A stretch of 64,000 nt of DNA from an uncultured Pseudomonadales bacterium (GCA_964556485.1 CAZKVV010000003.1:56610-120609); one strand, 5' to 3'; positions 9,928 to 34,788 are shown, counted from the stretch's first letter. Notes: generated by a model not told the origin, from the sequence alone. Translations and numbers: made by a program.

Positions 9928-9935
9928 AGGCATTT

Positions 9936-10274: not shown

Positions 10275-10334
10275 CCAAAATTATTGAAATCGTAAAAATG
10301 CCGATGTGTAGTAGAATATATACAAGATAGACAC

Positions 10335-10363
10335 TTGACTCAAGGTCAAAGAAAACTAATAAT
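10335..10363 (+). promoter_or_regulatory. sigma-70-like promoter for pilin paralog G
   Basis: TTGACT at 10335-10340, 16-17 nt spacer, TAATAAT at 10357-10363. Followed by AAGGAG (10383-10388) and ATG at 10392. Confidence 0.45.
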
Positions 10364-10391
10364 AGTAAAAGTGAAAAAAAATAAGGAGACT

Positions 10392-10793: not shown

Positions 10794-10823
10794 ATTGATA
10801 CAGTTATCTACAACGTAACTAAG

Positions 10824-10852
10824 AAACACCCCGTTAACAGCGGGGTGTTTTG
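10824..10852 (+). terminator. rho-independent terminator after pilin paralog G
   Basis: Stem AACACCCCG (10825-10833) pairs with CGGGGTGTT (10841-10849), 7-nt loop, then a T-run. Confidence 0.6.
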
Positions 10853-10859
10853 ATGTATT

Positions 10860-11444: not shown

Positions 11445-11464
11445 CTTCGTTTATAAACACCGAG

Positions 11465-11947
11465 ATGACCGTATTTAAAAACCTTGCTATACTAACTAGT
11501 ATGACAATCACCAGCCGATGGAAAAATAGTACAGCTAGCATTAAAAAAATCGCCACTTTGCTTTTTGTAGTGGCAGTTTCAACGATAGTGAGCGCTCAGC
11601 CTGTTCACGCTCAGACGAGAGAATGGGGCGGTGTTTGTTTAGGCCCAACCGAAGGATCAGCAGATGTGGCAACTATCCAAGGTCTTGAATGCTTAATCGC
11701 TAATGTGTTCATTGTTATTATCACTCTCGTTGGCCTTGCTGGCTTTGTGATGTTTTGTGCTGGCGGAATTATCTGGATGTTTTCAGGAAATGATAGCAAA
11801 AACACTGCTACAGCCAGACAAACTATGACCTATGCGGTTATTGGAATAGTGGTAACCCTCAGCGCATTTATTGTTCTTAACCTAATCTCTGCCTTCACCG
11901 GCATTAGCATCATTACTCAATTCAGAATTCCTACTTCAGAGATGTAG
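11465..11947 (+). CDS. VirB2/TrbC-like pilin family protein (paralog I)
   Basis: Signal peptide (VHA-QT), TM1, IWMFSGNDSKNTATARQ loop (compare the VirB2 WMFG segment), TM2. Confidence 0.5.
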   Translation: MTVFKNLAILTSMTITSRWKNSTASIKKIATLLFVVAVSTIVSAQPVHAQTREWGGVCLGPTEGSADVATIQGLECLIANVFIVIITLVGLAGFVMFCAGGIIWMFSGNDSKNTATARQTMTYAVIGIVVTLSAFIVLNLISAFTGISIITQFRIPTSEM

Positions 11948-18076: not shown

Positions 18077-21000
18077 CTAGTGATCTTTTTCTGCAAGTTT
18101 TAACAACGTACCCTGTCGTGTCAACGGAAACTTCGTATGTTTATGTCTTTTCAACATCTCTAAGTAAATTTTATGCCTCTTTTCTGTTGGTAAAACTTGA
18201 CTTTTTAGCCATACCTCAAGACTTTTTCCCATGATTTGTTGCGGTGGATCTTCGTGATACACTTTTCGATACCAACTATCTACATATTCATACAGGTTTT
18301 TATTTCTACGTAGTTTTGGTGGTGCAAAGTCATGAGAGCGCTGAGCTTTCACACCTTTAATCCGCACCACATTTCCTTTTTCAATTTTTTCTATTGGGTT
18401 TAATGACAAATTATTAATAACCGCTGTCATTTCTGCTTTATAAGAACTAAGACCTCCGTTTCTCGAATCACTGAGGGCCTCAACCATTGCGTGATATAGT
18501 CTTTCTCTTTCTTTTGGATCATCATAATCGTCGAATGCCTGAGCTAATCGCAAACAGTAATGAGTTAATAATGGTTCCAAAAAGAGTGTTAGATGGTTCC
18601 CCGGGAACATTTTAACTTTTCCTGCGGTTTGTAGCCACTTACCCAACAACCCACCCTTACCGGCCTCTTCATAGTGCTCCATGATTTGCTCAAAGGTTAG
18701 GGGCGCTGGTATGTCCTTGTATGCCATCTCAAGCAATTCGCCAAATCCGTTTTCTTCTGCCAACTGATACAACTCAATTGAGCTAACAGATTCCCTGTTG
18801 CCATCAAATTTTTTGGCTAACTCCAAAGCTCGATTTGCTATGTATTCTGGAGACTGAGTGTAGGCCGTCCATCGCTCTTCTTCAATTTTTGTTTTCCTAT
18901 GATTGGTAATCTCAATCACATCGGCTGATGCCAAACCTTCTTTCGCAAGCGCCTCCTGGTAGCTCTGATTATCTTTTGGATCCAACAAATACCTTCTCCA
19001 AGCCCTCTCTTCTTCTTCTTTATTAATTGGGTCGTTAGCAGCAAGTCTTTCTCGCAAACCCTCTCCAACCATTTTTGTTCTATTGCTGTCAATCATGTGG
19101 TCAAAAAGCCAGAGTGTTTCATCTGGATGAAGTCTTAAAAATGCATCTGTAGCCAGACCAATTGACTCACAATATCCTGCTAGGGGAATTCCATGATTCT
19201 CTTTGTAACCTGATTTTCGCTTTGTTTTTTCATCTCTGTGCGCAGTAAAATTATCAATTTCAAAAAACATTCGTTCATGTCGCCACATTTGTTGTTGTAA
19301 TTTAATCATTGCCTCGTGATCTGGCCAAGTCCAGTCTTCACTTTTTGCTGTTTCTTTTGTAACACCTCTTGCAATCGCCTCTGGCTTGAGAGGTTCCTTC
19401 TTTCCATATTTAAATTTGCTTTTTCTCAAATCTTCATGATAAAAAAGTATCCACATCGACCAATCTTCGTCATTTCCACCATACCTAAACATACGGTGTA
19501 CTGCAGCTGCCAGCGGGTCGGAGAACATAATTCTATCTGGATCTTTAACAGCACCATTATGTCCGCGTGTTTGAGTTGTTTTTTGTAATTCTCTAAGTGA
19601 GAGCGTGAGGTAGTCGAAGTTTGTATAAATAAGTTGTGCAAACTCTAGAGCGCGAGGATCATACCGTTTGCCACCTTCTCCGAAAACCTTATTGATATAC
19701 CTATCTAAAACTGTACGGCCGGTTTCACCAATGAGGAGAAAAAAATTCATTTCACCATCAAACTCATATAGTGGAGTTTCTCCAGGCCTCAAGTCGTTAA
19801 CGAGAATTGAAAGTTCTTTTCCATCTCTAAGAACTACACACTGGTCTGGCCGGAGTGACGCAGTTTTGACTACATGTTCTAATATTTCTGATAATTGAGC
19901 ACCATATTCTGGGTGATAGGTGGTGGCAATCAGCAACTCTCTACGAGTAATAATTCTTTTCTGCATCTCAGCGTACAGTTGCGATCTATCAGTGGAAGCT
20001 TTCTCATTTTCATGCTGATTCTGATTATCCATTGTCTTCAGCTGGACTTTAACTTTATAAACAATTCTGTCGATTTCTGCTTTTGGATCACCCTCAATGT
20101 TTGTATTGGCTTTTTTCATGAATTCATTAATGACTTCACGTTCTCTATTTCCGCCTGTAGGACCTTTCCACTCTTTCCACAAGAATGGGTCCATACGAGA
20201 ATCACCAATTTCATCGGCTAGTTCAGCCAACGACATAGTGCTCACTTCTGGTTTAAGCATTGTTTCAAGAATTCCTCCAGCATCCAACAAGTCTCTAATT
20301 CTGGGAACAAGTTGCTCAATTGCTTGAACAACCGATGCCTTTTTTCCTGAAGGATTCAAAAGCCCTTTCACGGAAGCTTTAGCAACCTCATCTGTCAAAT
20401 CTATTTTGAGTTGCTTAAGTGCTTTTCTTGGTAAATCTTGTCTTTTTGCCGGTACTTGAGCAAGTAATCTTTTAATTTCAATGATAATTGGGTTGCTATT
20501 AAAGTCATTAAGCTCTTTTGCTGCAGCATCTTGTTCTATAAGCTCGTTTAACTCGGCTAGTTTTGCTGTCGCAGCATCGAACAAACTTTGTATGTAGTCG
20601 TTCTTAAGATCTCCAAAGTGGTTTGCTGGAGTAAGCCACTCGTTTGCTTTTTTTTCAGCTGTTGCATCAGCCACCTTTGACTGAAGTGCTGTAATTCTAT
20701 CTTGAGGAGTATCGCCAGGAGTATACGGAGGTGCCGGCGACACTCGAGCTGTTTGAGCAACTAAATCTTGCAACATTGGATATTGATCTAGCGTTGCTTT
20801 CCAAGTTTCAAACAATTTTGTATCAATTTCAACAATACGATCGTTTAATTTCTTGCGCATTTCCTTTGCTGGATTAATGTATAAAATGAGTATTTGCCTG
20901 TTTCTTCTGACACTAACCACAGCATCGTCAGAGCGAGCCAAGGCCTCTCTAATTTCTTCTGCATTATCTATGAGTTGATCTAAATCTGCTGTGAGTGAAC

Positions 21001-21877
21001 CACTATGACCCACCACTTGTCTAGGATCCCAATCTGGGTCTGCTAAATATTGATTAGCCTCGGCAACAAATAAGGCTAGTATTCTTAACTCGTCGGGGTG
21101 AGAGGTGTCAACACTTTGCCAGCTTATTTCTTGAGTTGGTGCCTTATCTTTAAGTTGACCTAAAATAGTTGAAATATTGTGTAATAATCCATTAATTTCT
21201 GCAAGCTGATTAGTAAACTCTAGGTCATAACTTAAATCAAGATCTGACATCTCCATGTAAAAACCAACCCTCAGTGCCTCGAGAGCTTCAGCTGCTGTAA
21301 AATCGGAATCTGCCACAGCACGCTGTACTTCTGTTAAAAATGGGCGGAGTTTTGCTAGTAGTGCCTTTTTTTCAGTAGTAAACGACTCCAATCTTTGTGC
21401 TGTATCTTCTTCAATGTCTTGAACAGGTGCTGCGTCTGCCTGATTTACTACTTCTTCAAGAGGTTGCTCGGGTGTTTGAGATTTAGCCATGCGTTCCTGT
21501 GCAACTCTTCGGGCTCTATCAAGCAAGCCAGCACCACCACTTTTGATTTTATTCAATCTATCATTAAGAGCAGCAAGCCTTCTTTGCGCAACAATTTGGT
21601 CAGATTCTTGTGCAGCCCGAACGATCTCTTCTCTGTTAGTAAGGTAATAATCAGCTTGAGTCCTAGATACATCGCTTAGTTTAAAACCTGATTTAAAAAT
21701 AAAACTTTCTAACGTATTAAGGTGTTCGTTTATTGCACCAACATCACGGTTGGCAATTGAAGCAGTGAGAGCAGCAATTAAGCGATTATACTCACCTTGA
21801 AGAGCAATTTTTTCTTGTTGTGGTCTTGATTCACTATCTGGTCTAGCCATGGGTAATATTATATCATTTTTCCTCAT
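18077..21877 (-). CDS. giant cytoplasmic protein (1266 aa), unknown function
   Basis: Long uninterrupted ORF with no signal peptide or TM segment and no recognisable motifs. Divergently transcribed from the downstream large genes. Confidence 0.55.
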   Translation of the reverse strand: MRKNDIILPMARPDSESRPQQEKIALQGEYNRLIAALTASIANRDVGAINEHLNTLESFIFKSGFKLSDVSRTQADYYLTNREEIVRAAQESDQIVAQRRLAALNDRLNKIKSGGAGLLDRARRVAQERMAKSQTPEQPLEEVVNQADAAPVQDIEEDTAQRLESFTTEKKALLAKLRPFLTEVQRAVADSDFTAAEALEALRVGFYMEMSDLDLSYDLEFTNQLAEINGLLHNISTILGQLKDKAPTQEISWQSVDTSHPDELRILALFVAEANQYLADPDWDPRQVVGHSGSLTADLDQLIDNAEEIREALARSDDAVVSVRRNRQILILYINPAKEMRKKLNDRIVEIDTKLFETWKATLDQYPMLQDLVAQTARVSPAPPYTPGDTPQDRITALQSKVADATAEKKANEWLTPANHFGDLKNDYIQSLFDAATAKLAELNELIEQDAAAKELNDFNSNPIIIEIKRLLAQVPAKRQDLPRKALKQLKIDLTDEVAKASVKGLLNPSGKKASVVQAIEQLVPRIRDLLDAGGILETMLKPEVSTMSLAELADEIGDSRMDPFLWKEWKGPTGGNREREVINEFMKKANTNIEGDPKAEIDRIVYKVKVQLKTMDNQNQHENEKASTDRSQLYAEMQKRIITRRELLIATTYHPEYGAQLSEILEHVVKTASLRPDQCVVLRDGKELSILVNDLRPGETPLYEFDGEMNFFLLIGETGRTVLDRYINKVFGEGGKRYDPRALEFAQLIYTNFDYLTLSLRELQKTTQTRGHNGAVKDPDRIMFSDPLAAAVHRMFRYGGNDEDWSMWILFYHEDLRKSKFKYGKKEPLKPEAIARGVTKETAKSEDWTWPDHEAMIKLQQQMWRHERMFFEIDNFTAHRDEKTKRKSGYKENHGIPLAGYCESIGLATDAFLRLHPDETLWLFDHMIDSNRTKMVGEGLRERLAANDPINKEEEERAWRRYLLDPKDNQSYQEALAKEGLASADVIEITNHRKTKIEEERWTAYTQSPEYIANRALELAKKFDGNRESVSSIELYQLAEENGFGELLEMAYKDIPAPLTFEQIMEHYEEAGKGGLLGKWLQTAGKVKMFPGNHLTLFLEPLLTHYCLRLAQAFDDYDDPKERERLYHAMVEALSDSRNGGLSSYKAEMTAVINNLSLNPIEKIEKGNVVRIKGVKAQRSHDFAPPKLRRNKNLYEYVDSWYRKVYHEDPPQQIMGKSLEVWLKSQVLPTEKRHKIYLEMLKRHKHTKFPLTRQGTLLKLAEKDH

Positions 21878-22147
21878 AAAACTGTCAAAGAAGATTTACG
21901 ACAACTAATGCCCACCCACTGTCTGGGTACTATCGTACTTGCATTACCTTATTTTTTTCGCTACAGTGGTGAAACTTTACGGAATCTGGTGAAAATCCAG
22001 AGCTGTGCCGCAACGGTGACTGTTACAAACAGAAGTCCGATCTGTAAAGAAACTTTGTACAACCAAAGTATACCGACGAGCATCGGGCTTGCGCCCATCG
22101 TACTACTTTCCACACCAGCAAGCCTTGTTGCTCCTCTCAGGAGGAGT

Positions 22148-23986
22148 ATGTTGAGCAGACAAGAAAAAAACCCACCTACATCCCAATTTGAACAATGGGA
22201 CGCAACTGATTACATTGCACTAATGGCCAATCCTGCTTTTCGCACGGAGGAAGCATTACGAACTCTTTTTGCAGCCAATTTTTTTGCTTTTGCAGCCGAG
22301 TATACTCGAGGTGAACTCATTTCTAACTTTACAATGAATGTTGATCCTCAAAAAGGCCTGTTGGGAATGTCCTCTTCATACAACGAAGGTATGGAAGGCA
22401 TGGGTGAGCACTTTGAAACTAAAATTGCAGGACAAAAAAAGCAAACTGCTCGAGCAGAGGCGGAAACCAACAATATCGACAAACTAAACGAGTGGTCAAA
22501 AACGGCTCCGGTTGATTCCTTTTTTGTCTGGAATAGTCCGCCAGGAAAGATATCTGAAGGATATGCAGGACTCAATTCGCATTCATTCATTTTTATCTAT
22601 CACAAAACAACTGCAAACACAGTGGTATTGCATCAACTCAGAACCTGGATGTCACTCTCACAACATGCTGAGTTTCAAAATCAGATCTCTTCTCATACCC
22701 AAAACATCTCATCCGCTGTAAATGCAGTAGAACATTCCTATCGCATCATTAATAACATTTCAGTCTTTGAACCCAAAGATGTGGGATGCACTTCCGCAGC
22801 AGAAGTAGTTGCAAAACTAACTGAAAGTGCCTACCAAACAGAGCAAACCTGGAAGACGAAACCACAAGAAATGCCCAAAGTTCCCGATGCTGAATATGCC
22901 CAACTTAGAGACTTTTTACTAAGCCTGTATGTGCGTGTGGTTGTACCCGCTCTTCTTACTGAAGTGCCCGAAACCCAAGATGCAAATAGTACGGAGTGGC
23001 TGGCGTTTATCTCCTCACCAGCATATAAAATGCTCATTCAAAAATTAGATGTTGCTTTCGGCATATTAGCCTATCAACCGCTTACTAAATGGGTGGCAGA
23101 AAAAGACGAAAATAAACAACAATCACTTCTGGGGCAGTTGTTAAGAAAAAAAGATACGTCAATCACCACTCTTTCGTTTGAAGAGATTGAAGAAAAACTA
23201 CTTTCACTCTTTCATTTACAACTACAAAAATCTGCAGGTACACCAATTACTCGAAAACAAATCAAAGAATACAATGCCATCGCTTCATCGCTCATGGCTA
23301 CAACATCAAGAGGATTGAGTTTGGGTCAGTGTGGGCTTGGAACCTTTATACCTACTAGAATGTTCAAAACATTTGGACTACAAGACATAGCTGGCTCAAC
23401 TCTTAACCCAGGAATGCTTCTAGGTTTGCCCTCTCACGAAAAAGCTGCAGCCTTTTCATTCTTAACAACCAAAAAATATCTTCCTCTCCACCTTCCCAAT
23501 GGTGAAACTTGGTATGTTTTAGCCAAACACCATCAACTCTATGCCAATTATTTTGCTCAAAATCCAAATAGTTTCACAGCTGATGGACTGCCCATCGGCC
23601 CTTGCGGCTGGTTACTGCGCGGCGACCCTCGTGGTATGGATGAGCTCGTTTTAACCGGTGGAGAATTTAGTCAATTTGAACTACTCAAAGCGTCGTTACT
23701 CGCCGATTTATTAAGCAATCCTCACGACACACTTTCATTACTCGAATCATCCCTCATGCCTCATATTCACTCCGCTGTACAAAAAGAGAGGCTCACTCAA
23801 GTACTACTCACTTTACATGACGCACTTAAAACAACGGTTTCACTTCAGGAGCTGCTTTTTTCTGATTTTTTTAACAAAACAGCTTTTCCTTTAATAGCTA
23901 GTCTTTCAAAAAAAGTTGATGTTCGCCAATTTGTGACTAATCCAGAGCATACTGCCGCACAAGTTGTTGCTGCTTTTGAGGTATAA
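22148..23986 (+). CDS. hypothetical protein (about 612 aa)
   Basis: Start moved to the ATG at 22148 preceded by AGGAGGAG. The upstream 240 nt of the ORF-track ORF look non-coding (odd composition, structured RNA motifs). Confidence 0.5.
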   Translation: MLSRQEKNPPTSQFEQWDATDYIALMANPAFRTEEALRTLFAANFFAFAAEYTRGELISNFTMNVDPQKGLLGMSSSYNEGMEGMGEHFETKIAGQKKQTARAEAETNNIDKLNEWSKTAPVDSFFVWNSPPGKISEGYAGLNSHSFIFIYHKTTANTVVLHQLRTWMSLSQHAEFQNQISSHTQNISSAVNAVEHSYRIINNISVFEPKDVGCTSAAEVVAKLTESAYQTEQTWKTKPQEMPKVPDAEYAQLRDFLLSLYVRVVVPALLTEVPETQDANSTEWLAFISSPAYKMLIQKLDVAFGILAYQPLTKWVAEKDENKQQSLLGQLLRKKDTSITTLSFEEIEEKLLSLFHLQLQKSAGTPITRKQIKEYNAIASSLMATTSRGLSLGQCGLGTFIPTRMFKTFGLQDIAGSTLNPGMLLGLPSHEKAAAFSFLTTKKYLPLHLPNGETWYVLAKHHQLYANYFAQNPNSFTADGLPIGPCGWLLRGDPRGMDELVLTGGEFSQFELLKASLLADLLSNPHDTLSLLESSLMPHIHSAVQKERLTQVLLTLHDALKTTVSLQELLFSDFFNKTAFPLIASLSKKVDVRQFVTNPEHTAAQVVAAFEV

Positions 23987-23994: not shown

Positions 23995-26900
23995 ATGAGT
24001 GCAGCTGGATTGCCGCCAGAAGATCTTCGTTTCGAGCTTGTCAAACGACTTGATCCTTCTTTGTCCCTCAAAAACAACCGTTCCCAAGTAGAAATAATTT
24101 TCAACCAGCTCAAGTCAGCATTTAAAAGAGGCGAATTAGTTGGGGATTCATTTATTACCGTACAGCTGGCAGATGCTCGAACACGACTATTATCAGTTGT
24201 CTCCAACACCCGTGAGGGTTTGAGCGAAAGTGAGCAAGAAAAATACTTATTTTACTCAGACTTTGCCGCACTACTTCTAGACATCGCTAAACTCTTCAAG
24301 GCAAGTAGTAAAAAACAAGAATTCACCCAATATGCTACAACCGAAAAACAATTAAAAGAATGGGCTCACGAAGCAGGTGCGCCATATGAATCCATTTCTG
24401 AATTTGCTGTGTGGCAACATCGGTATGAACTACAAACACTTCTAGATAAGTTAGCAGCAAGTTTTAAAGATTTTTCAGTTGATGAAGAAGTCGAAACAGA
24501 AGTTGAGGATGAGGAAACAGAAGCTGAAAAAGACGTCGCACAAGAAGATGATGAAAAAAAGCGCAAGCTAATTGCTGAAGCGTTAGAAAAGCAACAAGAA
24601 GATGTGGCAGCGGCTGCAGCGGCCCTATCTAGTGCGGTGGTGCCCACCACTACAGATGGTGGCGCTGCTCTCGCCAGTGCTTCAGCAACTCCCCCTCCAG
24701 TTTCTATAGACCCTAGCAAACCACTTGGCTCGCAACTAACTGCCAAACAACTTAGTCAATACAATGCCAATATTGGTTGGTTAACCAGTTTTACACTACT
24801 CCAAATTGCAGATGAGATGGGTTTGGAGATTTCCACACTTCCACCAGATTTGCGTGGCGAATTAACCGGAATGGTTGCGACCTACCTCACCACTGAGGGC
24901 GACCTCGCCGAGCTGCTAAAAGGTAGTCCTACCGCTCGTCTCAGAGCTATTCGTGGCTTTCAAAAATACTTACAACAAAATAATTTCTATGACAAACATC
25001 AACTCTATCCTTCAGCCACATCTACGCTTGAAGAAAGAACAGACAAGCGGATAAACGAAATTTTAGGCGATACCAACAGCATAATTGACACCAGCATTCG
25101 CAAAACAGTCGAGGATATTGTCCTAGTTCATGGTCAAAAAAGCCAGAAGCTCATTGACTCTTTCGACAATGCAAAAATTGAACTCATTTTTGGACTAGAT
25201 CGATACAAAATTACCATCGAGCAAGCAGATAAACTCAAGGGTGTTCTTAAATCATATGCCGAAGTGAGATTGGATGAACTCGTTTTGCACACTGGTGATG
25301 AAGACACGCTTGAAGGACTGGATCCCGACCAAAATCCAGAATTAAAAGATGTAACAACACTTGTTGATCAAATTAAAGCAGTAAGAACAACTATTCAGCA
25401 AAACACAACCAGTGCAGACAGTGAAAAAGCGGAACTTGGCGCTGGAGCACTCACTTCTAAAGGAGGAGTTTCTAAAAAAATCAAGCTGGCCGTTGAACAA
25501 AATCAGAAAATTTTTGGTCCATATTGGAGTAGTTTGTCTCCCGAGCAGCAGGCTGTTGTGCTCTCAACACTCGATCCGTCATACAAAAATCTGCTTGAAG
25601 TTAGACAGCATCCAGTAGAAGGCTATCCACTACCTCTAACTATTGCTGAATTTAATCCTGATATTCTTCGTCGCTTTGAACTTGAGCAAAGCATGTTGAA
25701 AAACGGTAAAATGAGCCCTGAGGAGTATCAACTCGCTCTGGAAATTGCACAATACAACGATCTAGTTGAGCAACAAGAGGCCGTTGCTGCGCAACTACGT
25801 CAAGAATATTTAGCTCTCACTTCAGCAGAACAACAAGCAGCAATTGCAACCTCACTAGCCCTCGAAAATCTGGCACAAATGCAAGAACAGGCTAGTTTCA
25901 TGGAAATGTGTCAACAAGATGAAGCATTATGTGCTGCGGGTGGTGGTGAATCAGTCGACTCAGAAGCTATCAACGAACCATCTAATGTTGGCGATGGTAG
26001 TCCTGTTGACAACGGTAGAAGCCTGATAAAAAGAAGGCGTGGTAAAAAAGGAGAAGGTGTTTCTCCTAAAGAGAAAAGGATTAAAGCACTTAAAAATGCT
26101 GCTAGCAAAAAAGCTCATGCCGCTGTTAATAGCGGTCTTACAAAAGCGGCTGGAGCAATTCCTGTTGTTGGAACTGCGGCAGCAGCTGTACTCACTGCGC
26201 TCAGCGCTGTAATTGGCAAAGAAAATGCTAACAAGTTGGTAGCTGGAGTAGGTGTTGCCGCAGGCTTAGTTTTTGCTAAAACACTATATGCTTTCACCAC
26301 TATTGGCGGAGCTCTTGGAGGAGCTATTGGCGGAATTGTAGGAAGCATACTTGCCCCAGGAGCAGGAACGCTTATTGGCGCTGTTCTTGGCGCTAATATT
26401 GGCGCCGCCATTGCTCCTGCCTCTTGGATGGGTGTTTTTAGCGGTGGTGGTGGTGGACTATTTAGTTCAACTGTATTTCCAACAGTTGGCTCGGTTGCTT
26501 CAACTGCCACGAACGCAGCGGGTACTGTTGTCTCGGGTGCGTCTAGTGCCGCTAGTACAGTAGCGCAAGCTACACAAGCAACTACTACAGCAGGGTCTGC
26601 CACAACAGCCGCAACCATAAAGGCGACAGGACTCAACGTGATTACTGCAACAACCAGCCTCACTTTCTTGGCGCCTGTGGGAGGAGTAGTTCTAGCAGGA
26701 TCCTTCACGCTCGTTGTTCTTATTGTTATTTTTGCCGCGTTTCTTGTACCAATGCCTTTTTCTTCTTACTCTGGTGGCGCAAATCAAACCGAATCACTCT
26801 ACGCGACAGTAGAAAAAACCTCAAACCCATCATCGCTCAGTAACAATACCCCAACACAAGTTACCTACACTATTTCGATTGCTCCTCGAACTGGGTATCA

Positions 26901-27735
26901 AATTGAAATTAAGGGTGTAACCGACAGTTTTTCAAATGTTGGCGGTACTGGATCTGTCCCCACTTCACCACTAGTTCGTGATAATTTTCCAACAGGAGTT
27001 TTGTCACAGCCAACCACTACTACCTACACCATTGAGCTTTCTGGAGAAGACATACTCGTTAGCAATACCGTCACCTTTGTCATCGACGTTTTCAACCCAA
27101 GTGGAGAGTTAATTAAACAAGGTGAAAGTATTAGCTCAATTGCTTCAGTGCGCATTGGAAATCCACCCATTGGTTGTTTTGAGTTTGCTCCGGCTGGCGA
27201 AAGAATTACCTACACAACTAACGGTCAATCTTACACCAATATTTCTGAAACCATTACTCAAACAGATCAAAACTTGTTTTTGCAATCTTTTACTCGCAGA
27301 GTAGCAACCAATGCAATGTATATATCATTACTCTGTTCTGACGGCCCCATTCTCATTCATAAGTGGCAAGCAAGTCCATCCGGATACTATGCCTGGGTTT
27401 TTGCTCCAAATAAAATTGGGTTTTATGCACCCGCTTGGAGTTCTGGGCGTTGGTTTGAGTACACACTCATACACGAGACGGGTCATATTATTGATGCGCG
27501 CAATGGAGGACTTCGTACGCAATTCTTACAAGTAAAAACAGATGCATCCTGCTATTCATACCCAGCTACCTGCAGTGAGGGTGAATCATTTGCTGAAGGT
27601 ATGGTCCTCTATGTCTTATATCAAACACTCAGTTTTAACTTTAGCAATTGGACTGGCCCGTTCCCTTTTAAATCAGATTACCCCGTTGAATACAACTGGT
27701 ATAAACAAAATATTTTTGGTGGACAGGAGTTTTAA
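23995..27735 (+). CDS. giant membrane protein (1246 aa) with C-terminal HExxH zinc-metallopeptidase-like motif
   Basis: Acidic coiled N-terminal half. Gly/Ala-rich TM cluster (residues about 720-900). C-terminal TLIHETGHIID followed by a downstream acidic SEGESFAEG (zincin-like). Confidence 0.55.
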   Translation: MSAAGLPPEDLRFELVKRLDPSLSLKNNRSQVEIIFNQLKSAFKRGELVGDSFITVQLADARTRLLSVVSNTREGLSESEQEKYLFYSDFAALLLDIAKLFKASSKKQEFTQYATTEKQLKEWAHEAGAPYESISEFAVWQHRYELQTLLDKLAASFKDFSVDEEVETEVEDEETEAEKDVAQEDDEKKRKLIAEALEKQQEDVAAAAAALSSAVVPTTTDGGAALASASATPPPVSIDPSKPLGSQLTAKQLSQYNANIGWLTSFTLLQIADEMGLEISTLPPDLRGELTGMVATYLTTEGDLAELLKGSPTARLRAIRGFQKYLQQNNFYDKHQLYPSATSTLEERTDKRINEILGDTNSIIDTSIRKTVEDIVLVHGQKSQKLIDSFDNAKIELIFGLDRYKITIEQADKLKGVLKSYAEVRLDELVLHTGDEDTLEGLDPDQNPELKDVTTLVDQIKAVRTTIQQNTTSADSEKAELGAGALTSKGGVSKKIKLAVEQNQKIFGPYWSSLSPEQQAVVLSTLDPSYKNLLEVRQHPVEGYPLPLTIAEFNPDILRRFELEQSMLKNGKMSPEEYQLALEIAQYNDLVEQQEAVAAQLRQEYLALTSAEQQAAIATSLALENLAQMQEQASFMEMCQQDEALCAAGGGESVDSEAINEPSNVGDGSPVDNGRSLIKRRRGKKGEGVSPKEKRIKALKNAASKKAHAAVNSGLTKAAGAIPVVGTAAAAVLTALSAVIGKENANKLVAGVGVAAGLVFAKTLYAFTTIGGALGGAIGGIVGSILAPGAGTLIGAVLGANIGAAIAPASWMGVFSGGGGGLFSSTVFPTVGSVASTATNAAGTVVSGASSAASTVAQATQATTTAGSATTAATIKATGLNVITATTSLTFLAPVGGVVLAGSFTLVVLIVIFAAFLVPMPFSSYSGGANQTESLYATVEKTSNPSSLSNNTPTQVTYTISIAPRTGYQIEIKGVTDSFSNVGGTGSVPTSPLVRDNFPTGVLSQPTTTTYTIELSGEDILVSNTVTFVIDVFNPSGELIKQGESISSIASVRIGNPPIGCFEFAPAGERITYTTNGQSYTNISETITQTDQNLFLQSFTRRVATNAMYISLLCSDGPILIHKWQASPSGYYAWVFAPNKIGFYAPAWSSGRWFEYTLIHETGHIIDARNGGLRTQFLQVKTDASCYSYPATCSEGESFAEGMVLYVLYQTLSFNFSNWTGPFPFKSDYPVEYNWYKQNIFGGQEF

Positions 27736-27737: not shown

Positions 27738-28358
27738 ATGGAAAGAGGTCGTAAACGAGTTCACGAGTTACATCAAGAAGTCGCACCCAAACAAGCTGAT
27801 TTTGACAGAAAACCAAAAAAGAACTGGGTATTGCCTGCCATTGCGATTTCAGCAGTGCTGTTGTTGATCATCACCTTCATCAGACTATTCACTCCGGAAA
27901 CACAGCCACCACTACAAGAAAACAGTTGGAATGGCGTTACGCCCGGATATTCCTTCACACAAAAAGTTTCTGAGGAACTCGGCGAACCTATTTCGGTAAA
28001 CATGGTTGGAAATGCAAAAGAAGTTAGTTATAAATCTGTATTCCCTTCCAAACCAAATACTATTCTTGTTTCCGATAATGGTATAGTCGAGTTTATTAAG
28101 GAACATGTCACCTACGACTCCAAACATACTGTTGAAAACTACCTCCCTAAACTCGGTCAGCCTGATTTTGTGTTATTCGCCCCAGAAATTAGCATTGGAG
28201 TGCAAGCGCATGTATTTTTATCAAAAGGCGTAGTACTCATTGCTCACAGCAAAGATAATAGTGTCGAACAAAAATGGTATTTTGCGCCAACTAATAAAGA
28301 TTCGTTTATGTTTACTTGGGGAAAAGAACTTTCAGAATCATTTAGTAATCCAGAATAG
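27738..28358 (+). CDS. bitopic membrane protein, VirB8-like candidate
   Basis: 206 aa. Short basic N-terminus, one TM (WVLPAIAISAVLLLIITFIRLF), extracytoplasmic domain of about 150 aa. Assignment is by architecture and locus context only. Confidence 0.35.
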   Translation: MERGRKRVHELHQEVAPKQADFDRKPKKNWVLPAIAISAVLLLIITFIRLFTPETQPPLQENSWNGVTPGYSFTQKVSEELGEPISVNMVGNAKEVSYKSVFPSKPNTILVSDNGIVEFIKEHVTYDSKHTVENYLPKLGQPDFVLFAPEISIGVQAHVFLSKGVVLIAHSKDNSVEQKWYFAPTNKDSFMFTWGKELSESFSNPE

Positions 28359-28423: not shown

Positions 28424-29632
28424 ATGCGAGAACATCCAATTCCACAAGACATTACGGGATACCGCTTCCACATTATTGGGAGTATGACTCTCAAGCAATT
28501 TGTGGAGATTTCAATTGGTGTAGTCATTGGCGGCATCATTTATTCAACCAACCTTCCCGCAGTAATCAAGTTTCCGCTCATTCTATTTTCCGTTGCACTC
28601 GGAGGTATGGCTGCTTTTCTACCAATTGAAGACAGGCCGCTTGATCACTGGATCATCACTTTTTTTAGGGTGATGTACAACCCAACTCAATTTTTTTGGA
28701 GACGTGAGCCCAACATTCCCGACTGTTTTAACTTTACTCCCAACGCTCAAACCATGATTCATGAACCAGAAATTGATCTAGGCCCTGCAAAAAAACAACG
28801 TATCCGTGAGTATATGACCTCCGTACCAAATACAGTCGATCCTTTTGCACTCGATGCTTCCGAAAACTCTCGTATTTCATCAATCATGAGTAGTTTTTCA
28901 AGCACTGAGGTGACCTCAGTACAAGTAACACCAACAAAACTTCCTCAACATATATCCGAGAAACCACAACTTGGCGTACGCGTGAGAAGTCTTCGCGCAA
29001 AAGCAAAAGAGAATGTGGTCTTTATAGCTGAAGATGTAGAAATGACAACTACACACGTGCCTACTGGACCACGAATTATTGAGGAAACAGTTAATGGCGT
29101 TGAGACTAATCTTGCCACTCAATATCTCGAAAGAGAACAACTTACTAAGCAATCTCAAAACGTGTCGGAAGTTGCTGGGAATATTGCAATTCCTGCTCTA
29201 GAAGAAATTCATGTTGTTCCCCAAGCAGAAGATGGGACGGTCGCGCCTGCTATCGACACAACCACACAACAAATGATTTTTGATAATTCTCAAGGAATGG
29301 CAATTAGTGAGGGAATAGCCTCAGAAGAAGCGGGTTTTAACACTTCACTACCATTTCCAGAACCTCCAAGTGAACCAAATAAATTAGTGGGCATGGTACT
29401 CAGTCCAACTAATGAATTAATCGTCAATGCTATTGTTGAAATTCAAACACCAACTGGTGCCGTTGCAAGGGCTGTAAAAACCAACACACTTGGTCAATTT
29501 TTCATCACCACTCCTCTCGAGGATGGAGACTATAATTTAGTTGTTGAAAAAGATGGGTACCAGTTTAGCAACCAACATATACAAATAACCGGAGAAATTG
29601 TTCAACCAATAGAAATAAGAAGTCTTGGTTGA
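28424..29632 (+). CDS. two-TM protein (VirB3/PrgI-like candidate) fused to a CarboxypepD_reg-like beta-sandwich domain
   Basis: N-terminal 2-TM hairpin (FVEISIGVVIGGIIY ... PLILFSVALGGMAAFL). C-terminal GMVLSPTNELIVNAIVEIQTPTGAV...GDYNLVVEKDGYQ. Confidence 0.4.
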   Translation: MREHPIPQDITGYRFHIIGSMTLKQFVEISIGVVIGGIIYSTNLPAVIKFPLILFSVALGGMAAFLPIEDRPLDHWIITFFRVMYNPTQFFWRREPNIPDCFNFTPNAQTMIHEPEIDLGPAKKQRIREYMTSVPNTVDPFALDASENSRISSIMSSFSSTEVTSVQVTPTKLPQHISEKPQLGVRVRSLRAKAKENVVFIAEDVEMTTTHVPTGPRIIEETVNGVETNLATQYLEREQLTKQSQNVSEVAGNIAIPALEEIHVVPQAEDGTVAPAIDTTTQQMIFDNSQGMAISEGIASEEAGFNTSLPFPEPPSEPNKLVGMVLSPTNELIVNAIVEIQTPTGAVARAVKTNTLGQFFITTPLEDGDYNLVVEKDGYQFSNQHIQITGEIVQPIEIRSLG

Positions 29633-29665: not shown

Positions 29666-31051
29666 ATGAATGAAACCGTTATTCACTCCACTACTCAAAA
29701 ATTTCTCGATATTTTTGATATTACCAATAATTTAGTGATTCTCAAAGACGGTACTACTTCATTAATTATTCAAGTTGATGCTATGAACTTTGGCTTATTA
29801 GCCGAAGAAGAACAAGATAGCATCATGTATGCCTATGCCGGGTTGCTAAACTCACTTAACTACCCGATCCAAATCATCGTACATTCTCAAACCAAAGATG
29901 TAACTGGTTATCTGAGTATCCTAAAGGATCAAGAAGACACTGCCACCAGTAGAGAAAAACAGCAAAGAATTCGCCGCTATCGTGAATTTGTGAGTAATCT
30001 TATTAAAGAACGCAATGTTTTGGATAAAAAATTTTACGTTACCATTTCTGCAACACCTCTCGAGCTTGGTATGATTGCTCCACAGAGTTTTATCCCGGGA
30101 AAAAGTGAAATTAAAATCACTGGTGAAGAGCGCACGGCTGTTATTGAAAAAGCACGTTATATTCTCGAACCAAAACGAGATCATTTACTCGCACAATTTT
30201 CTCGAATTGGACTGTTTTCTCGACAGTTAACCACTCAAGAAATGATTCAGTATTTTTATATTAGTTACAACCCCGAGGCTGCAGAAGGGCAGCAAATCGC
30301 CGATACTAATAATTACACAACACCCATGGTTACGGCAGGTGTTGAAGGAATGTCCTCTATGAACGCAACACAAATTCCAACCCCTATATCACAGGTTGCA
30401 GCAACTGCACCAGCTGAAACTCAAGCAGTAGTACAACCGACAACTCCTGTTGTCGCACCAACGCCAGCAATAGAGCAAGTGGCCGTAGCAGCGCCACCAG
30501 TCCAAGAAGCTCAGCCAGTTTATTCTGCAGCACCTGTTGCCCCAGTACCACTTCCTGTTGAAGCACAGCTCGAGCAGGTTCCTCAGCAACTGTTAGAACA
30601 ACAACCAGAACCTGTCATTCAAATTGAAAGAGCTCCTGTAGATGTGGTGGTTCCTCAATCGCAATCGGGTGCGTACACGCCAACAATGATGACTACCCCC
30701 ATTCCTCTTGAAACACCCACTCCAACTTCGGTGTCACCAGAACCTATTGCCGCTATTCACCATACTGAAACAGCAGCCTCAACAGAGCCAACTGTAGATA
30801 TGAGTGTTGCTCTAAGCACCACTCCGACTGAATTGCCAAAACCAACGCTACCAGCGGGAATGACTACGACTCAACCAATTAGCGCTAGTGCTGTTACTCC
30901 GCAAGCGCCTGTAGAAGTTCAAACACAGACACCTGTTCCTCAAGAAGCTACTGCGCAAGATGCCATTAATACAACGTTGGGACAACTTGGGGGAATATCG
31001 GTGACGCCAGATAATTCAAACGCAACACTTCCTCCACTTCCTGAAATTTAG
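29666..31051 (+). CDS. VirB4/TrbE N-terminal-domain-like protein with long Pro/Thr/Ala/Val-rich low-complexity tail
   Basis: N-terminal LVILKDGTTSLIIQVDAMNFGLLAEEEQDSIMYAYAGLLNSLN parallels the extreme N-terminus of TrbE/VirB4 (LNKDGSF...RGPDL...E...LNNALRRL). Followed by about 230 aa of PTAV-rich sequence. Confidence 0.45.
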   Translation: MNETVIHSTTQKFLDIFDITNNLVILKDGTTSLIIQVDAMNFGLLAEEEQDSIMYAYAGLLNSLNYPIQIIVHSQTKDVTGYLSILKDQEDTATSREKQQRIRRYREFVSNLIKERNVLDKKFYVTISATPLELGMIAPQSFIPGKSEIKITGEERTAVIEKARYILEPKRDHLLAQFSRIGLFSRQLTTQEMIQYFYISYNPEAAEGQQIADTNNYTTPMVTAGVEGMSSMNATQIPTPISQVAATAPAETQAVVQPTTPVVAPTPAIEQVAVAAPPVQEAQPVYSAAPVAPVPLPVEAQLEQVPQQLLEQQPEPVIQIERAPVDVVVPQSQSGAYTPTMMTTPIPLETPTPTSVSPEPIAAIHHTETAASTEPTVDMSVALSTTPTELPKPTLPAGMTTTQPISASAVTPQAPVEVQTQTPVPQEATAQDAINTTLGQLGGISVTPDNSNATLPPLPEI

Positions 31052-31065: not shown

Positions 31066-33072
31066 ATGCCTAGCTTGCTTAGTTCACTACCTCTTCCTTT
31101 CGGTAAAAAGAAAACCGATACTATTGTGGTAACTCCAGAGCAGCAAAAAGAACAAGTTGAGTTGGAAAAACTCAAGCAATTTTCGCGTGGCTTGGTTACA
31201 ATTCAAGACATCATTGCTCCGGAAGCCATTGAGGTCGACTTCACCTTTCAAAAAATCAACGACACCTATTCAAGAACGCTCTTTGTTTCCGGCTATCCTC
31301 GCTCGGTGCCAGCCAACTGGTTGTCCCCGCTCATCAACTTCCCACATCAACTAAGCGTGTCAATGTTTGTCTATCCTGTTGATTCTGGTGAAATTCTCGA
31401 CAACCTCAAACGTAAAATCACTGAAATGGAGGCTGAAATTCAGTCTGACCTCCGGGCTGGAAAAATCAGTAATATTAATACTGAAGTGAAGCTCGAGGAT
31501 GCTCGGTTTATTCGAGAAGAACTCGCTAAAGGCTCGGAGCGCTTCTTCCAATTTGGTCTCTACGTTACGATTACAGCAAATGACAAAGATGAACTCGATC
31601 GCGTTACCAAGAGTATTCAATCAACACTTGGAGCCATGTTGATTGTTTCTAAAAAAGCCACTCTCCAGATGGACGATGGCTTCAAAACAACCCTTCCTAT
31701 GGGCGTAGACAAGTTGATGGTGACGCGAAACATGGACACCACTTCTTTAGCAACCACGTTCCCATTCACTTCCAGTGAACTCACTATGGAAACGGGTATT
31801 ATGTACGGCATTAACGAACATAATGATTCTTTAGTTATCTTCGACCGTTTTAAAATGGAAAATGCCAATATGGTGATCTTTGCTAAGTCTGGTGCGGGTA
31901 AATCCTACACGGTGAAGTTAGAAATCTTGCGCCAACTAATGTTTGGGGCTGAAGTCATCGTGCTCGATCCAGAACATGAGTACGAAGATCTATCTCAGGC
32001 GGTTAGTGGCGAGTATATAAATTTCACCTTCAGTTCTTCAGCAAAAATTAACCCTTTCGATCTCTCCAACCTCTATGAAGAAGGCGAAAACGAGTTGGGT
32101 CAAAAAATTATTTCAATTCATGGACTGCTTAAAGTGATGTTGGGCGAAATGACCGCACAACAAGATGCAATGCTCGACCGAGCTCTAGTTGCAGCGTACA
32201 AGGCTAAAGGCATCACTCCCGATCCAGCCACCCAAACCAACGAGCCGCCACTCATGGAGGATGTGTATAAAGCCTTAATTGGTATGGAAGATCAAGAATC
32301 AAATGACATCGCTGCCCGGTTAGAAAAATATATTACTGGTTCATTCAGGGGTATTTTTGACCAAAAATCAAATGTAAGCTTTAATAATCAATTGACTGTT
32401 TTTTCTGTGAAAGAAATGGAAGAGGCAATGCGACCAATTGCTATGTATATGATTCTAGATTTCATCTGGACCCGTGTTAAAAAAGACCTCAAAAAGCGTT
32501 TGCTCATTGTTGATGAGGCTTGGTACTTTATGAAGCATCCTGATTCAGCTTCATTTATTCACTCAATGGTTAAACGTGCACGTAAATACTATTTAGGAAT
32601 TACCACCATCACTCAAGATGTAGAAGACTTTTTGCATAATGATTACGGCAGAGCAATTGTTACAAACGCCTCGATCCAATTTTTGATGAAGCAATCTACT
32701 GCTTCAGTGCCAATTCTGGCAGAAACATTCTATCTTTCTCAAGGTGAGCGCCAGCTTCTCGTCACAGCAGATGTGGGTGAGGGCATTTTCTTTGCTGGCC
32801 AAAATCATGTAGCTCTTCGTGTTGTTGCCTCTGACGAAGAACATCAACTTATTACTACCAATCCTGAAGAAGTGTTTAAGCGTCAACAATTAATCAAAGC
32901 TCAAGCTGCCGCAGAGGCTGCACCTCAACAATCAACCCGCCCACAACCTTCAGCTGCCACCAGAGCACCCCAAACACAGCAGGTGCTGCAACAAAAAATG
33001 CAGCCAACTACTGACACCAGTTTGCCAAAACAACTCAATACCATTAATGACTACATTCCGCCTGAAAACTAA
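31066..33072 (+). CDS. virB4: T4SS ATPase, VirB4/TrbE/TraE family (lacks the usual N-terminal about 170 aa, which appear to be on the preceding ORF)
   Basis: CagE_TrbE_VirB-like block (YSRTLFVSGYPRSVPANWLSPL). Walker A FAKSGAGKSYTVK. Walker B LLIVDEAWYFM. ITTITQD sensor. Confidence 0.75.
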   Translation: MPSLLSSLPLPFGKKKTDTIVVTPEQQKEQVELEKLKQFSRGLVTIQDIIAPEAIEVDFTFQKINDTYSRTLFVSGYPRSVPANWLSPLINFPHQLSVSMFVYPVDSGEILDNLKRKITEMEAEIQSDLRAGKISNINTEVKLEDARFIREELAKGSERFFQFGLYVTITANDKDELDRVTKSIQSTLGAMLIVSKKATLQMDDGFKTTLPMGVDKLMVTRNMDTTSLATTFPFTSSELTMETGIMYGINEHNDSLVIFDRFKMENANMVIFAKSGAGKSYTVKLEILRQLMFGAEVIVLDPEHEYEDLSQAVSGEYINFTFSSSAKINPFDLSNLYEEGENELGQKIISIHGLLKVMLGEMTAQQDAMLDRALVAAYKAKGITPDPATQTNEPPLMEDVYKALIGMEDQESNDIAARLEKYITGSFRGIFDQKSNVSFNNQLTVFSVKEMEEAMRPIAMYMILDFIWTRVKKDLKKRLLIVDEAWYFMKHPDSASFIHSMVKRARKYYLGITTITQDVEDFLHNDYGRAIVTNASIQFLMKQSTASVPILAETFYLSQGERQLLVTADVGEGIFFAGQNHVALRVVASDEEHQLITTNPEEVFKRQQLIKAQAAAEAAPQQSTRPQPSAATRAPQTQQVLQQKMQPTTDTSLPKQLNTINDYIPPEN

Positions 33073-33189: not shown

Positions 33190-34788
33190 ATGACACAAGC
33201 TCACAGTATTACTTTTGCACAAGTACGGCAAATTTGGAAACAAGCCTGTGCTGAACTCCAGCTCCAACTTTCTCCGGCGGTATACAGCACTTGGATTGTC
33301 TCCAATCCTTTAACCCAGCTCACTTACTTGAATGAAACTGAAGCTCTCGCAACAATTACCAGCCCAACGGCGTTCCATTCCACAAATCTCAAAAAGAACT
33401 TACATTTACAGCTTAAGCAAGCCTTAGACAAGCATACGAGCCGAAACTGTAACATCGAGTATAAAATTGGTGATCCAGCTCATGCCTCAAATCAAGCTGC
33501 CGAGCAGCAAGGCTTCTCGCCCATGTCAGCCCAATTAAAACCTGAGCCACCCTCTTTTGACAATTTTTCACCGCCAAACAATCAATTTCAGCAGCAGGCG
33601 GGGATGTATCAACAACAATCAAACACGTATCAGCAGCAGCCTCAGCAATCGGGAAATAGTAACTACAACCAGGGACAATCTCCTAGAGTAGATGAATTAT
33701 TTTCAGAATCTGCGCTTTCAAGCGTCGCGACTGATCGTCTTGGGGCAATTGCTCGAAGAGTAGGCCTTCGTACCGATTACACTTTTGAAACCTTCGCAGT
33801 CTCAACCACTAATGAAATGGCGCATGCAGCAGCTACTGCTGTCTCTCACAGGCCTGGAGAAGCCTACAATCCCTTGTTCTTTTATGGTGGTGTTGGTGTG
33901 GGAAAAACTCATTTAATGCACGCCATTGGCAATAATATTTTACGGAACAACCCAAACTCTAAAATTATTTACTCGACTGGTGAAGAATTCACAAATGAAA
34001 TTGTTGATGCCATTCGAACAAAAAAAGCGGTCGATTTTAAATCAAAGTTCCGTTCGGCAGACGTATTATTGATTGATGATATTCAGTTTATTGCTGGTAA
34101 AAATGCGGTCCAGGAAGAATTTTTTCACACCTTCAATGCGCTTATTAAACAACTTCGCCAGGTTATTTTAACTTCTGACAGACCTCCTCACGAAATTACG
34201 CTACTTGAGGATAGACTAAGGTCTCGTTTCGAAGCAGGTCTCATGATTGATATCGGCCAGCCTTCCTTTGAACTCAGAACTGCCATCTTACTAGTCAAGG
34301 CCAAGGCAGCAAAACTTCCGATTACCATGGAAATTGCCAAAACGATTGCTTCTCAAGTAGAAAGCGCCCGTAAAATAGAGGGGATTATCACCAGCATCAG
34401 ATCTGAGGTAGAATTGAAAGGTAAGTCAATCACACCTCAGCTCATTCAAGATCTGCTGCAGGTAGAGATTGTAGAAAAGCGACCACCTATTAGAGTGACG
34501 CCTTCAGAAATAATTAGAACTGTAGCAAACCACTACAAACTAAAGCAAACAGCCATTAAAGGCACAAGAAGATCAAAATCACTAGTAACCGCGCGACATA
34601 TTGCGATGTATCTACTAAAAGAAGATTTGTCATTACCGCTAACTGAAATTGGAAAATGGTTCTCAGGAAGAGATCACACGAGCGTTTTGCATGCAGTGAA
34701 TAAGATTGACAAAGAACAGTCTATAGATGAACAGTTGCAGCAAGACATCTCTGCGCTTCGGATGACCTTAACAGCCATCTCGAGGTAA
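33190..34788 (+). CDS. dnaA: chromosomal replication initiator DnaA
   Basis: Q-rich N-terminal region. AAA+ Walker A GGVGVGKTHLMHAIGN. LIDDIQFIAGK. Domain IV RHIAMYLLKEDLSLPLTEIGKWFSGRDHTSVLHAVNKI. Confidence 0.9.
   Translation: MTQAHSITFAQVRQIWKQACAELQLQLSPAVYSTWIVSNPLTQLTYLNETEALATITSPTAFHSTNLKKNLHLQLKQALDKHTSRNCNIEYKIGDPAHASNQAAEQQGFSPMSAQLKPEPPSFDNFSPPNNQFQQQAGMYQQQSNTYQQQPQQSGNSNYNQGQSPRVDELFSESALSSVATDRLGAIARRVGLRTDYTFETFAVSTTNEMAHAAATAVSHRPGEAYNPLFFYGGVGVGKTHLMHAIGNNILRNNPNSKIIYSTGEEFTNEIVDAIRTKKAVDFKSKFRSADVLLIDDIQFIAGKNAVQEEFFHTFNALIKQLRQVILTSDRPPHEITLLEDRLRSRFEAGLMIDIGQPSFELRTAILLVKAKAAKLPITMEIAKTIASQVESARKIEGIITSIRSEVELKGKSITPQLIQDLLQVEIVEKRPPIRVTPSEIIRTVANHYKLKQTAIKGTRRSKSLVTARHIAMYLLKEDLSLPLTEIGKWFSGRDHTSVLHAVNKIDKEQSIDEQLQQDISALRMTLTAISR

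Follow-up and report, generated by a model that had tools for sequence, protein, structure and literature searches.

A conserved giant membrane protein of Patescibacteria type IV secretion loci with a predicted zincin head that varies together with the downstream gene

The window analyzed here, a stretch of 64,000 nucleotides (nt) deposited under an uncultured Pseudomonadales bacterium (GCA_964556485.1 CAZKVV010000003.1:56610-120609), belongs to the chromosome of a member of the Patescibacteria (candidate phyla radiation, CPR; Minisyncoccota), an ultrasmall bacterium with a monoderm-type type IV secretion system (T4SS). An earlier note on this DNA had singled out, within the T4SS locus, an open reading frame (ORF) for a giant membrane protein with a C-terminal HExxH metallopeptidase-like module. 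The ORF exists as claimed, with an ATG start 9 nt past the stop of the upstream ORF (21908-23986), and both the motif and the gene order support the general description. Close relatives of the product are found in Patescibacteria metagenome-assembled genomes (MAGs). We consider it secure that this gene, hereafter the target, belongs to the conserved parts of the CPR T4SS locus and that its product combines a long N-terminal region, a membrane bundle and an immunoglobulin-like stalk with a gluzincin head that looks catalytically intact.

The target protein consists of a long scaffold, a conserved junction and a head (Table 1). Its N-terminal region is free of transmembrane (TM) segments by hydropathy and is acidic, as the earlier note had it, with a net charge of -42 over amino acids (aa) 1-660; the first TM segment is preceded by K/R-rich sequence with a net charge of +10 (aa 660-720), and the entire region of about 715 aa would be cytoplasmic. 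The glycine-zipper-like TM cluster described in that note is likewise recognizable as Gly/Ala-rich hydrophobic segments at aa 718-742, 748-767 and 769-809, with the pattern GxxxGxxxGG...GxxxG present in the consensus of a 150-sequence family alignment; judging from the sequence, the cluster probably comprises four membrane spans. The C-terminal part of about 320 aa contains four cysteines (1061, 1114, 1186 and 1193), the first of which belongs to the junction motif; in the family alignment, G1055 of this motif is kept in 141 of 142 sequences and C1061 in 145 of 145. Full-length homologs are 39-68% identical to the target; searches of Pfam, NCBIfam, PHROGs and PDB sequences yielded zero matches for the full protein and none for the N-terminal region, and a paralog elsewhere in the window was looked for and rejected.

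Table 1. Coordinates of the target ORF, its predicted parts and the accompanying T4SS genes
Feature	Position (nt)	Strand	Basis or remark
Nine small ORFs, two hydrophobic segments each, head of the T4SS cluster	7730-11947	+	eight match Pfam T4SS_pilin (VirB2-like)
Whole target ORF, 1246 aa	23995-27735	+	scaffold aa 1-1062 and swappable predicted zincin head aa 1063-1246
N-terminal region, ~aa 1-717, ending in K/R-rich patch	23995-26145	+	composition
Gly/Ala-rich hydrophobic cluster, glycine-zipper-like, aa 718-809	26146-26421	+	hydropathy and family consensus
Low-complexity Ala/Ser/Thr/Gly linker, aa 810-887	26422-26655	+	composition
Last, strongest TM segment, aa 888-922 (...LVVLIVIFAAFLVPMPF)	26656-26760	+	hydropathy; AFLxP kept family-wide
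Beta-sandwich stalk (immunoglobulin (Ig)-like, DUF11/DUF7507-like), aa ~937-1054	26803-27156	+	
Junction motif GNPPIGCF, aa 1055-1062 (family: GNPxxGC[FW])	27157-27180	+	alignment
Predicted zincin (gluzincin) metallopeptidase head, aa 1063-1246	27181-27732	+	
HETGH, aa 1160-1164 (H1160, E1161, H1164), on predicted active-site helix aa 1151-1169	27472-27486	+	model helix 222-240
Y1189 (TYP motif; Y1187 in one alignment)	27559-27561	+	90-98% conserved
E1197-S-F-A-E1201 (ExFAE), on helix aa 1195-1208	27583-27597	+	model helix 266-279
p206, 206 aa, N-terminal TM segment and ~150-aa ectodomain	27738-28358	+	AGGAG at 27726-27730 in the target ORF
PrgI/VirB3 fused to CarboxypepD_reg	28424-29632	+	Pfam/NCBIfam profiles
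TrsD/TraC-like	29666-31051	+	profiles
VirB4 ATPase	31066-33072	+	profiles

The HETGH sequence in the head is the single HExxH motif of the protein. By composition, 0.006 occurrences are expected, and the motif was found in 0.4% of 20,000 shuffles of the target protein; these statistics, together with the invariance of the motif in the family, led us to reject a chance match. An exhaustive profile search of cluster representatives (clusters at 50% identity) with the C-terminal region (E<=1e-3) matched 390 representatives, the match nearly always being C-terminal, in proteins 800-1700 aa long, whereas a word-index protein search, the index of which misses the family, returned no match for the C-terminal 320 aa and one protein for alignment A4. 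Conservation was assessed in an alignment of 150 of the 390 representatives, 127 with HExxH and 23 without. Among these 127 members, which are 17-50% identical overall, H1160, E1161 and H1164 are present in all 127 and G1163 in 121, and across the 317 columns of the C-terminal region, the only residues that are 100% invariant are H1160, E1161, H1164 and E1197. They are followed by E1201 and the Tyr of the CYSYP/TYP motif (98% each) and by C1061 and C1114 (96-97%). This Tyr lies 8-10 residues before E1197, and the profile alignment pairs it with the Tyr of the '...TSYG...' motif of anthrax lethal factor.

These conserved positions allow the putative active site to be sketched. H1160 and H1164 would be zinc ligands and E1161 the catalytic base; E1201 would be a second-shell residue and the Tyr a transition-state helper. 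The earlier note had pointed to the acidic segment SEGESFAEG (aa 1194-1202) as zincin-like and had called for a search for the third ligand and a Met-turn. A candidate Glu ligand does lie in this segment, although not at its first Glu: E1195 is unconserved (31 of the 103 residues present in that column), which leaves E1197 as the predicted third ligand, and both E1197 and E1201 are invariant in alignment A4. With a Glu on a helix as the third ligand, no Met-turn is expected. Metzincins were rejected: HETGHIIDARN lacks their extended motif (HExxHxxGxxH/D), with neither a Gly three positions nor a His/Asp six positions past the second His, and the invariant downstream residue is Glu. The signature HExGH ... 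Y ... ExFAE is thus that of a gluzincin, apparently with its catalytic site intact.

Structure prediction agrees with this assignment. With an alignment of 5 sequences, AlphaFold2 (AF2) modeled the stalk only, the zincin region remaining at a predicted local distance difference test score (pLDDT) below 50, whereas with 40 diverse sequences, a model with pLDDT 92.9 and a predicted template modeling score (pTM) of 0.85 was obtained. In this model, a beta-sandwich (aa ~937-1054) is followed by a mixed beta/alpha domain with the zincin arrangement of a beta-sheet subdomain, an active-site helix and a lower helical subdomain, and HExxH and ExFAE are located on consecutive helices. The features that define gluzincins (clan MA(E)), namely a conserved HExxH on a helix, a Glu on a following helix as candidate third ligand (ExxxE) and the zincin fold, are thus all seen in the head as modeled. 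The earlier note had staked its proposal on the conservation of HExxH in homologs and on the presence of a zincin fold in structure prediction; the motif proved invariant and the fold was found.

Database comparisons place the head close to, and yet outside, known peptidase families. The stalk matched RbmA and other Ig-like folds, and Foldseek searches against PDB and viral structures returned Ig-like matches to the stalk only. Among 40 family members, Pfam gave no match at threshold, only scattered sub-threshold zincin families and, for the stalk, DUF7507/DUF11. A profile search of the PDB produced weak matches to PPEP-1/Zmp1 and lethal factor, with E 0.008-0.3. These belong to family M34 (PPEP-1/2/3, lethal factor; ATLF, PF07737), in which HEFGH ... 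SYG ... EFFAE of lethal factor aligns with HExGH ... Tyr ... ExFAE of the target. M34 enzymes are extracellular and zinc-dependent, as we would expect of the head. However, the ATLF threshold was reached by none of the 40 members (3 of the 40 gave sub-threshold matches, the best with E 0.034), identity amounts to 10-15%, and unlike the secreted M34 enzymes, the head is tethered to a membrane scaffold of about 1060 aa, in a context that points to the cell wall rather than to Pro-Pro sites. As modeled, the head is a zincin nearest in fold to M34 but not a sequence member of that family; by its sequence, it represents an uncatalogued family included in no Pfam family. MtfA (peptidase M90; 3dl1), a cytoplasmic regulator-binding aminopeptidase, shows no sequence match to the target and differs in context.

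In the 23 representatives that lack HExxH, the scaffold is kept up to the GNPxxGC junction, and most of them show by eye the HxxxD and HxH motifs of M23 peptidases, a few being truncated. All six M23-type members that were tested match Pfam Peptidase_M23 (E 1e-7 to 1e-11), and the M23 variants read on from the junction as GCWP.... In four of six BLASTP comparisons of the target with M23 orthologs, the scaffold alignment ends at residue 1062; with P0141 and P0109, it extends to 1080. P0141 is a full-length homolog aligned over aa 11-1080 (E 2e-37), and even the N-terminal region is weakly conserved in M23 variants (aa 35-140 against P0069, E 4e-7). The M23-headed genes occupy the same position in the locus as the zincin-headed ones. 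In a neighbor-joining tree of VirB4, the M23 loci branch from within the zincin loci, and their VirB4 and PrgI are as similar to those of the window as the VirB4 and PrgI of several zincin loci, which indicates that the zincin/M23 difference reflects replacement rather than deep divergence. The head thus appears, from these comparisons, to be an exchangeable module that follows the GNPxxGC junction, so that the gene displays the variable C-terminal domain beyond a conserved junction that is looked for in polymorphic toxins.

The gene that follows the target changes with the head. A hidden Markov model (HMM) of the p206 family (A5) identified the ORF immediately downstream of the target in all 37 zincin loci with downstream sequence (30 of them distinct) and in none of the M23 loci; conversely, an HMM of a family of about 330 aa (A6) identified the ORF immediately after the gene in the four M23 loci for which DNA was available, all four of them, and in no zincin locus. 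A fifth M23 locus, represented without DNA, has a 334-aa gene at the partner position. Both partner families combine an N-terminal TM segment with an ectodomain, but profile-profile comparison of A5 with A6 (hhalign) aligned the TM anchor only, at a probability of 18%, so that by this measure the ectodomains are unrelated; neither ectodomain has a Pfam or PDB sequence match. The ATG of p206 lies 3 nt beyond the end of the target ORF, and its ribosome-binding site is inside the 3' end of the target. The second hallmark of polymorphic toxins, a downstream gene that co-varies with the C-terminal domain, is accordingly present as well, and the head and the next gene seem to be exchanged as a unit. 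That head and partner go together without exception, and are translationally coupled, suggests that they function directly as a pair, in which p206 would most simply be an inhibitor or immunity factor, or else a positioning factor, for the tethered enzyme; the main alternative is a structural, VirB8-like subunit that docks the head. In one lineage (L039, 9686-10576, and also L040), the zincin head is encoded as a 297-aa ORF directly after virB4, with the giant scaffold absent, and a p206-family gene is still adjacent to this short ORF.

We examined 43 related loci (GTDB genomes and Logan, ENA and JGI contigs) using tblastn and HMM scans. At all 43, wherever the flanks suffice, the target gene is located within a T4SS cluster, and the gene order, a check proposed in the earlier note, is kept at every related locus examined, in one of two arrangements. 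In type A, which is that of the window, the order is polytopic p551 ... p692 - target - p206 - PrgI - TrsD - VirB4 - dnaA; in type B, it is PrgI - TrsD - VirB4 - target - p206 ... with dnaA on the opposite strand. The VirB3-like and VirB4-like neighbors named in the earlier note are confirmed by profile matches (Table 1). In the window, dnaA (33190-34788), dnaN, rnpA and yidC directly follow the T4SS core genes, and the cumulative GC skew has its minimum at approximately 32-36 kb, at dnaA, so that the T4SS cluster adjoins the probable replication origin. The T4SS arrangement of the window matches that of published CPR T4SSs (PMC12102498).

Taken together, these observations incline us, by a small measure, to a reading in which the target is a T4SS-integrated, surface-tethered peptidase, the head of which cuts peptide links of the cell wall and is served by a head-specific partner. 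The gene would encode a conserved, Patescibacteria-specific subunit of a chromosomal, dnaA-adjacent, monoderm-type T4SS. Its N-terminal domain would reside in the cytoplasm, the glycine-zipper bundle and the final TM segment would span the membrane, and outside the cell the beta-sandwich stalk would present the predicted gluzincin head. By cutting cell-wall peptide links locally, the head might let the T4SS or pilus through the cell's own wall, the role of VirB1/PrgK, or breach the host wall at the contact site, or both, with p206 acting as the specific partner of the tethered enzyme. The data themselves show the domain architecture, the invariance of the motif, the predicted fold, the synteny and the joint replacement of head and partner, and from these we infer zinc binding, activity, the peptidoglycan substrate, the topology and the role of p206.

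Several lines of evidence bear on the topology and the substrate. For the head to lie outside, the number of spans must be odd, five being the simplest case; an external location is suggested by the positive-inside K/R patch, the conserved Cys pair C1061/C1114, the Ig-like stalk and the replacement of the head in orthologs by M23, an enzyme type that acts outside the cytoplasm. A cell-wall substrate is favored because the other heads at this position, M23 and, in Southlakia, a DD-peptidase-like domain, are of peptidoglycan peptidase types; because no other hydrolase domain was detected by Pfam in the T4SS cluster; and because a recognizable VirB1 is usually lacking in CPR T4SS clusters, VirB1 homologs being mostly missing near virB4 in CPR (PMC12102498).

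Comparison with characterized systems shows how far the cell-wall reading can be taken. Known VirB1-class enzymes possess SLT/lysozyme, CHAP/NlpC-P60 or LytM domains and short N-termini. Like PrgK of pCF10, TraG of pIP501 and CwlT of ICEBs1, the target is encoded inside a VirB4/PrgI-type cluster, beside VirB3 and VirB4, and would be membrane-anchored with an extracytoplasmic hydrolase; its orthologs carry M23, a domain reported in CPR VirB1-like proteins (PMC12102498). Unlike these enzymes, the target has no recognized peptidoglycan-hydrolase domain (SLT/lysozyme, CHAP/NlpC-P60 or M23) and instead joins an HExxH head, putatively wall-cutting, to a Gly-zipper TM bundle and a predicted cytoplasmic domain of about 715 aa. 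Another parallel might be SEML1_0007 of Ca. Southlakia epibionticum ML1 (Saccharibacteria, cluster SEML1_0006-0019), a hypothetical protein of 1113 aa encoded directly after virB4, near dnaA, with a C-terminal Hedgehog/DD-peptidase fold (residues 951-1105), the Foldseek neighbors of which include M15B- and M23-domain proteins, and essential for epibiotic growth in transposon sequencing (Tn-seq) (PMC10633639). Southlakia has the type B layout, with SEML1_0007 beside virB4 (PMC10633639), and the essentiality of this positional counterpart may indirectly support a wall-hydrolyzing role needed for T4SS function. The two proteins share giant size, location beside virB4 in the type B order and a C-terminal peptidase-type domain, but the head of SEML1_0007 is of the Hedgehog/DD-peptidase (M15-like) type rather than a zincin, and a lysozyme/CHAP protein takes the place of p206.

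Several considerations weigh against a wall-cutting, surface-tethered enzyme. To our knowledge, no HExxH zincin is established as a peptidoglycan hydrolase, and the closest folds, PPEP and lethal factor, cleave proteins, not cell walls. Replacement of one module by another would imply an equivalent position, not an equivalent substrate, and SEML1_0007 can be likened to the target by position, size and published fold annotation only. The number of TM spans is ambiguous, and an even number would place the head in the cytoplasm; the zinc site is a prediction. As for the partner, p206 might instead be a structural subunit of the VirB8 type that has diverged, and the co-swap of head and partner may stem from only one or two evolutionary events.

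The main rival reading of the head, raised by its fold similarity to M34, is that of a surface protease that cleaves proteins, be it the precursors of the nine VirB2-like pilins, the cell's own adhesins, with release from the host as the outcome, or host surface proteins. The best structural and profile matches are indeed to M34-type enzymes acting on proteins, and the same cluster includes the nine-gene pilin array, with a long Cys-rich, putatively secreted protein encoded nearby. Nevertheless, we regard this explanation as unlikely given that orthologs swap the head for M23 domains, which are typically peptidoglycan endopeptidases, that a DD-peptidase-like head is found on the positional counterpart in Southlakia, and that no sequence match reaches the ATLF family threshold. 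The co-swap, in turn, does resemble toxin-immunity cassettes, and one could imagine an interchangeable anti-host head with a downstream immunity gene, the purpose of which is damage or lysis of the host for nutrients rather than T4SS assembly. As in CdiA-CT/CdiI and Rhs-CT/RhsI, a conserved body ends in a sharply conserved junction followed by a variable, replaceable enzymatic C-terminus, and the downstream gene, which is translationally coupled and membrane-anchored on the producer, switches with the head at every locus examined. However, only two head types, both peptidases, occur among the 150 representatives, whereas classical systems show many unrelated toxins; the target is a single-copy, syntenic T4SS core element in a secretion-machine operon, and no orphan head/immunity cassettes were seen; and the head is, by sequence, tethered by TM helices, with no known release site. 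We therefore rate a module dedicated to host damage as decidedly improbable; by its features, the target resembles a conserved, membrane-tethered core part of the CPR T4SS more than a translocated effector, and the effector or toxin function suggested in the earlier note is a lesser possibility.

Another option is that the protein has a purely structural part in the T4SS and its enzyme fold is vestigial, the head and p206 serving as docking elements and catalysis being irrelevant. This would account for the large conserved cytoplasmic and TM scaffold and for the size and topology of p206, which are those of VirB8/PrgL-like proteins; VirB8 is otherwise rarely detected in CPR (PMC12102498). Yet the catalytic residues are invariant in 127 members at 17-50% identity, which is unexpected for a pseudo-enzyme, the six tested M23 heads reach the Peptidase_M23 threshold and most of the 23 have intact HxxxD/HxH by eye, and p206 has no sequence similarity to VirB8 or to any Pfam or PDB entry, so that we give this possibility very little credence. 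Within the preferred reading of a tethered wall-cutting peptidase, a bolder version, tentative and in our opinion doubtful, is that of a 'drill head': the scaffold, an integral subunit of the T4SS, would confront the host envelope with a wall-cutting peptidase of exchangeable type (zincin, M23 or M15-like) while the downstream protein protects the cell's own wall, and both would be exchanged jointly by recombination at GNPxxGC. If so, head exchange perhaps adapts the epibiont to hosts that differ in cell-wall chemistry, and the zincin head would be the first HExxH-type enzyme with peptidoglycan cleavage in a secretion machine as its dedicated task.

Patescibacteria need their T4SS for epibiotic growth, although its role is yet to be established (PMC10633639, PMC12857230). 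T4SS-associated wall hydrolases are already known, as is the essential 'peptidase downstream of virB4' in Southlakia (PMC10633639), whereas the present family, the zincin head, the junction-delimited head swap and the co-varying downstream gene appear undescribed in the literature searched. The family is large, with 390 clusters at 50% identity and a member in every related T4SS locus examined, and its members would expose, as a machine part, a peptidase with an apparently intact catalytic site at the cell surface. It offers a candidate for the missing wall-opening activity, an enzyme/partner pair and a possible handle on host specificity, and it extends the zincins by a family not catalogued so far, the fold of which is related to that of PPEP and lethal factor.

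The remaining genes of the cluster include several large proteins. The earlier note had placed VirB6-like and VirB8-like genes around the target; no profile confirmed either label. A polytopic protein of 551 aa (16301-17956, + strand), with about 7-8 hydrophobic segments and 27-63% identity in related clusters, is the likely VirB6-type channel subunit, even though VirB6, TrbL and PrgH profiles gave no match. The possibility that the target itself is an extended VirB6 is not supported: Pfam and NCBIfam gave no match to VirB6/TrbL/PrgH, and this separate polytopic protein is present in the cluster. The ORF immediately upstream of the target (21908-23986), listed in the earlier note at 612 aa, encodes 692 aa, and its homologs have 619-648 aa. 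A protein of 1075 aa (11978-15205, + strand), encoded after the pilin array, has one N-terminal hydrophobic segment, 25 Cys and 52% identity in relatives, and may be secreted or a T4SS-associated surface protein; searches of Pfam, NCBIfam, PHROGs and PDB with the 692-aa and 1075-aa proteins yielded nothing. The 1266-aa protein (18077-21877, - strand) is TM-free and fast-evolving, and tblastn detected it in only two loci (24-27% identity); at the corresponding position, the genes on the opposite strand in related loci encode 793-1551 aa.

The nine-ORF array is a pilin array as reported for CPR T4SSs; its second ORF (8097-8549) has the same hydropathy pattern and no Pfam match. In the PrgI/VirB3 gene, the PrgI/VirB3-like domain covers aa 5-88 and CarboxypepD_reg (prealbumin-like) aa 321-389, and this fusion is found in all related loci. 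A mobile-element or conjugative origin of the cluster is unlikely because it is chromosomal, beside dnaA/dnaN/rnpA/yidC in all loci; no relaxase turned up in the scanned ORFs, with no search aimed at relaxases made. Scanning the window for Rfam families and tRNAs gave no hits. Two MAG contigs (L005 and L007; one isolate is named HK-STAS-PATE-16) bear the public title 'Pseudomonadales bacterium' even though their T4SS/dnaA loci are clearly those of Patescibacteria; this is probably a taxonomic mislabel.

Outside the T4SS core, an 849-aa VirD4-like coupling protein (TrwB_AAD_bind, TraG-D_C; 58301-60850, - strand) is encoded about 25 kb from virB4, adjoining a RadA-like gene (56937-58304), which fits the report that type IV coupling proteins of CPR are usually encoded away from virB4. 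At the other end of the window, a run of mevalonate-pathway-like genes (389-5953, - strand) comprises two GHMP kinases, a thiolase, a 3-hydroxy-3-methylglutaryl coenzyme A (HMG-CoA) synthase-like gene and HMG-CoA reductase (E 3e-89), with a NUDIX protein (5983-6624) beyond it. Divergent from the pilin array is a gene for an extracytoplasmic function (ECF)-type sigma factor (Sigma70_r2/r4_2; 7170-7700, - strand), a candidate regulator of the T4SS.

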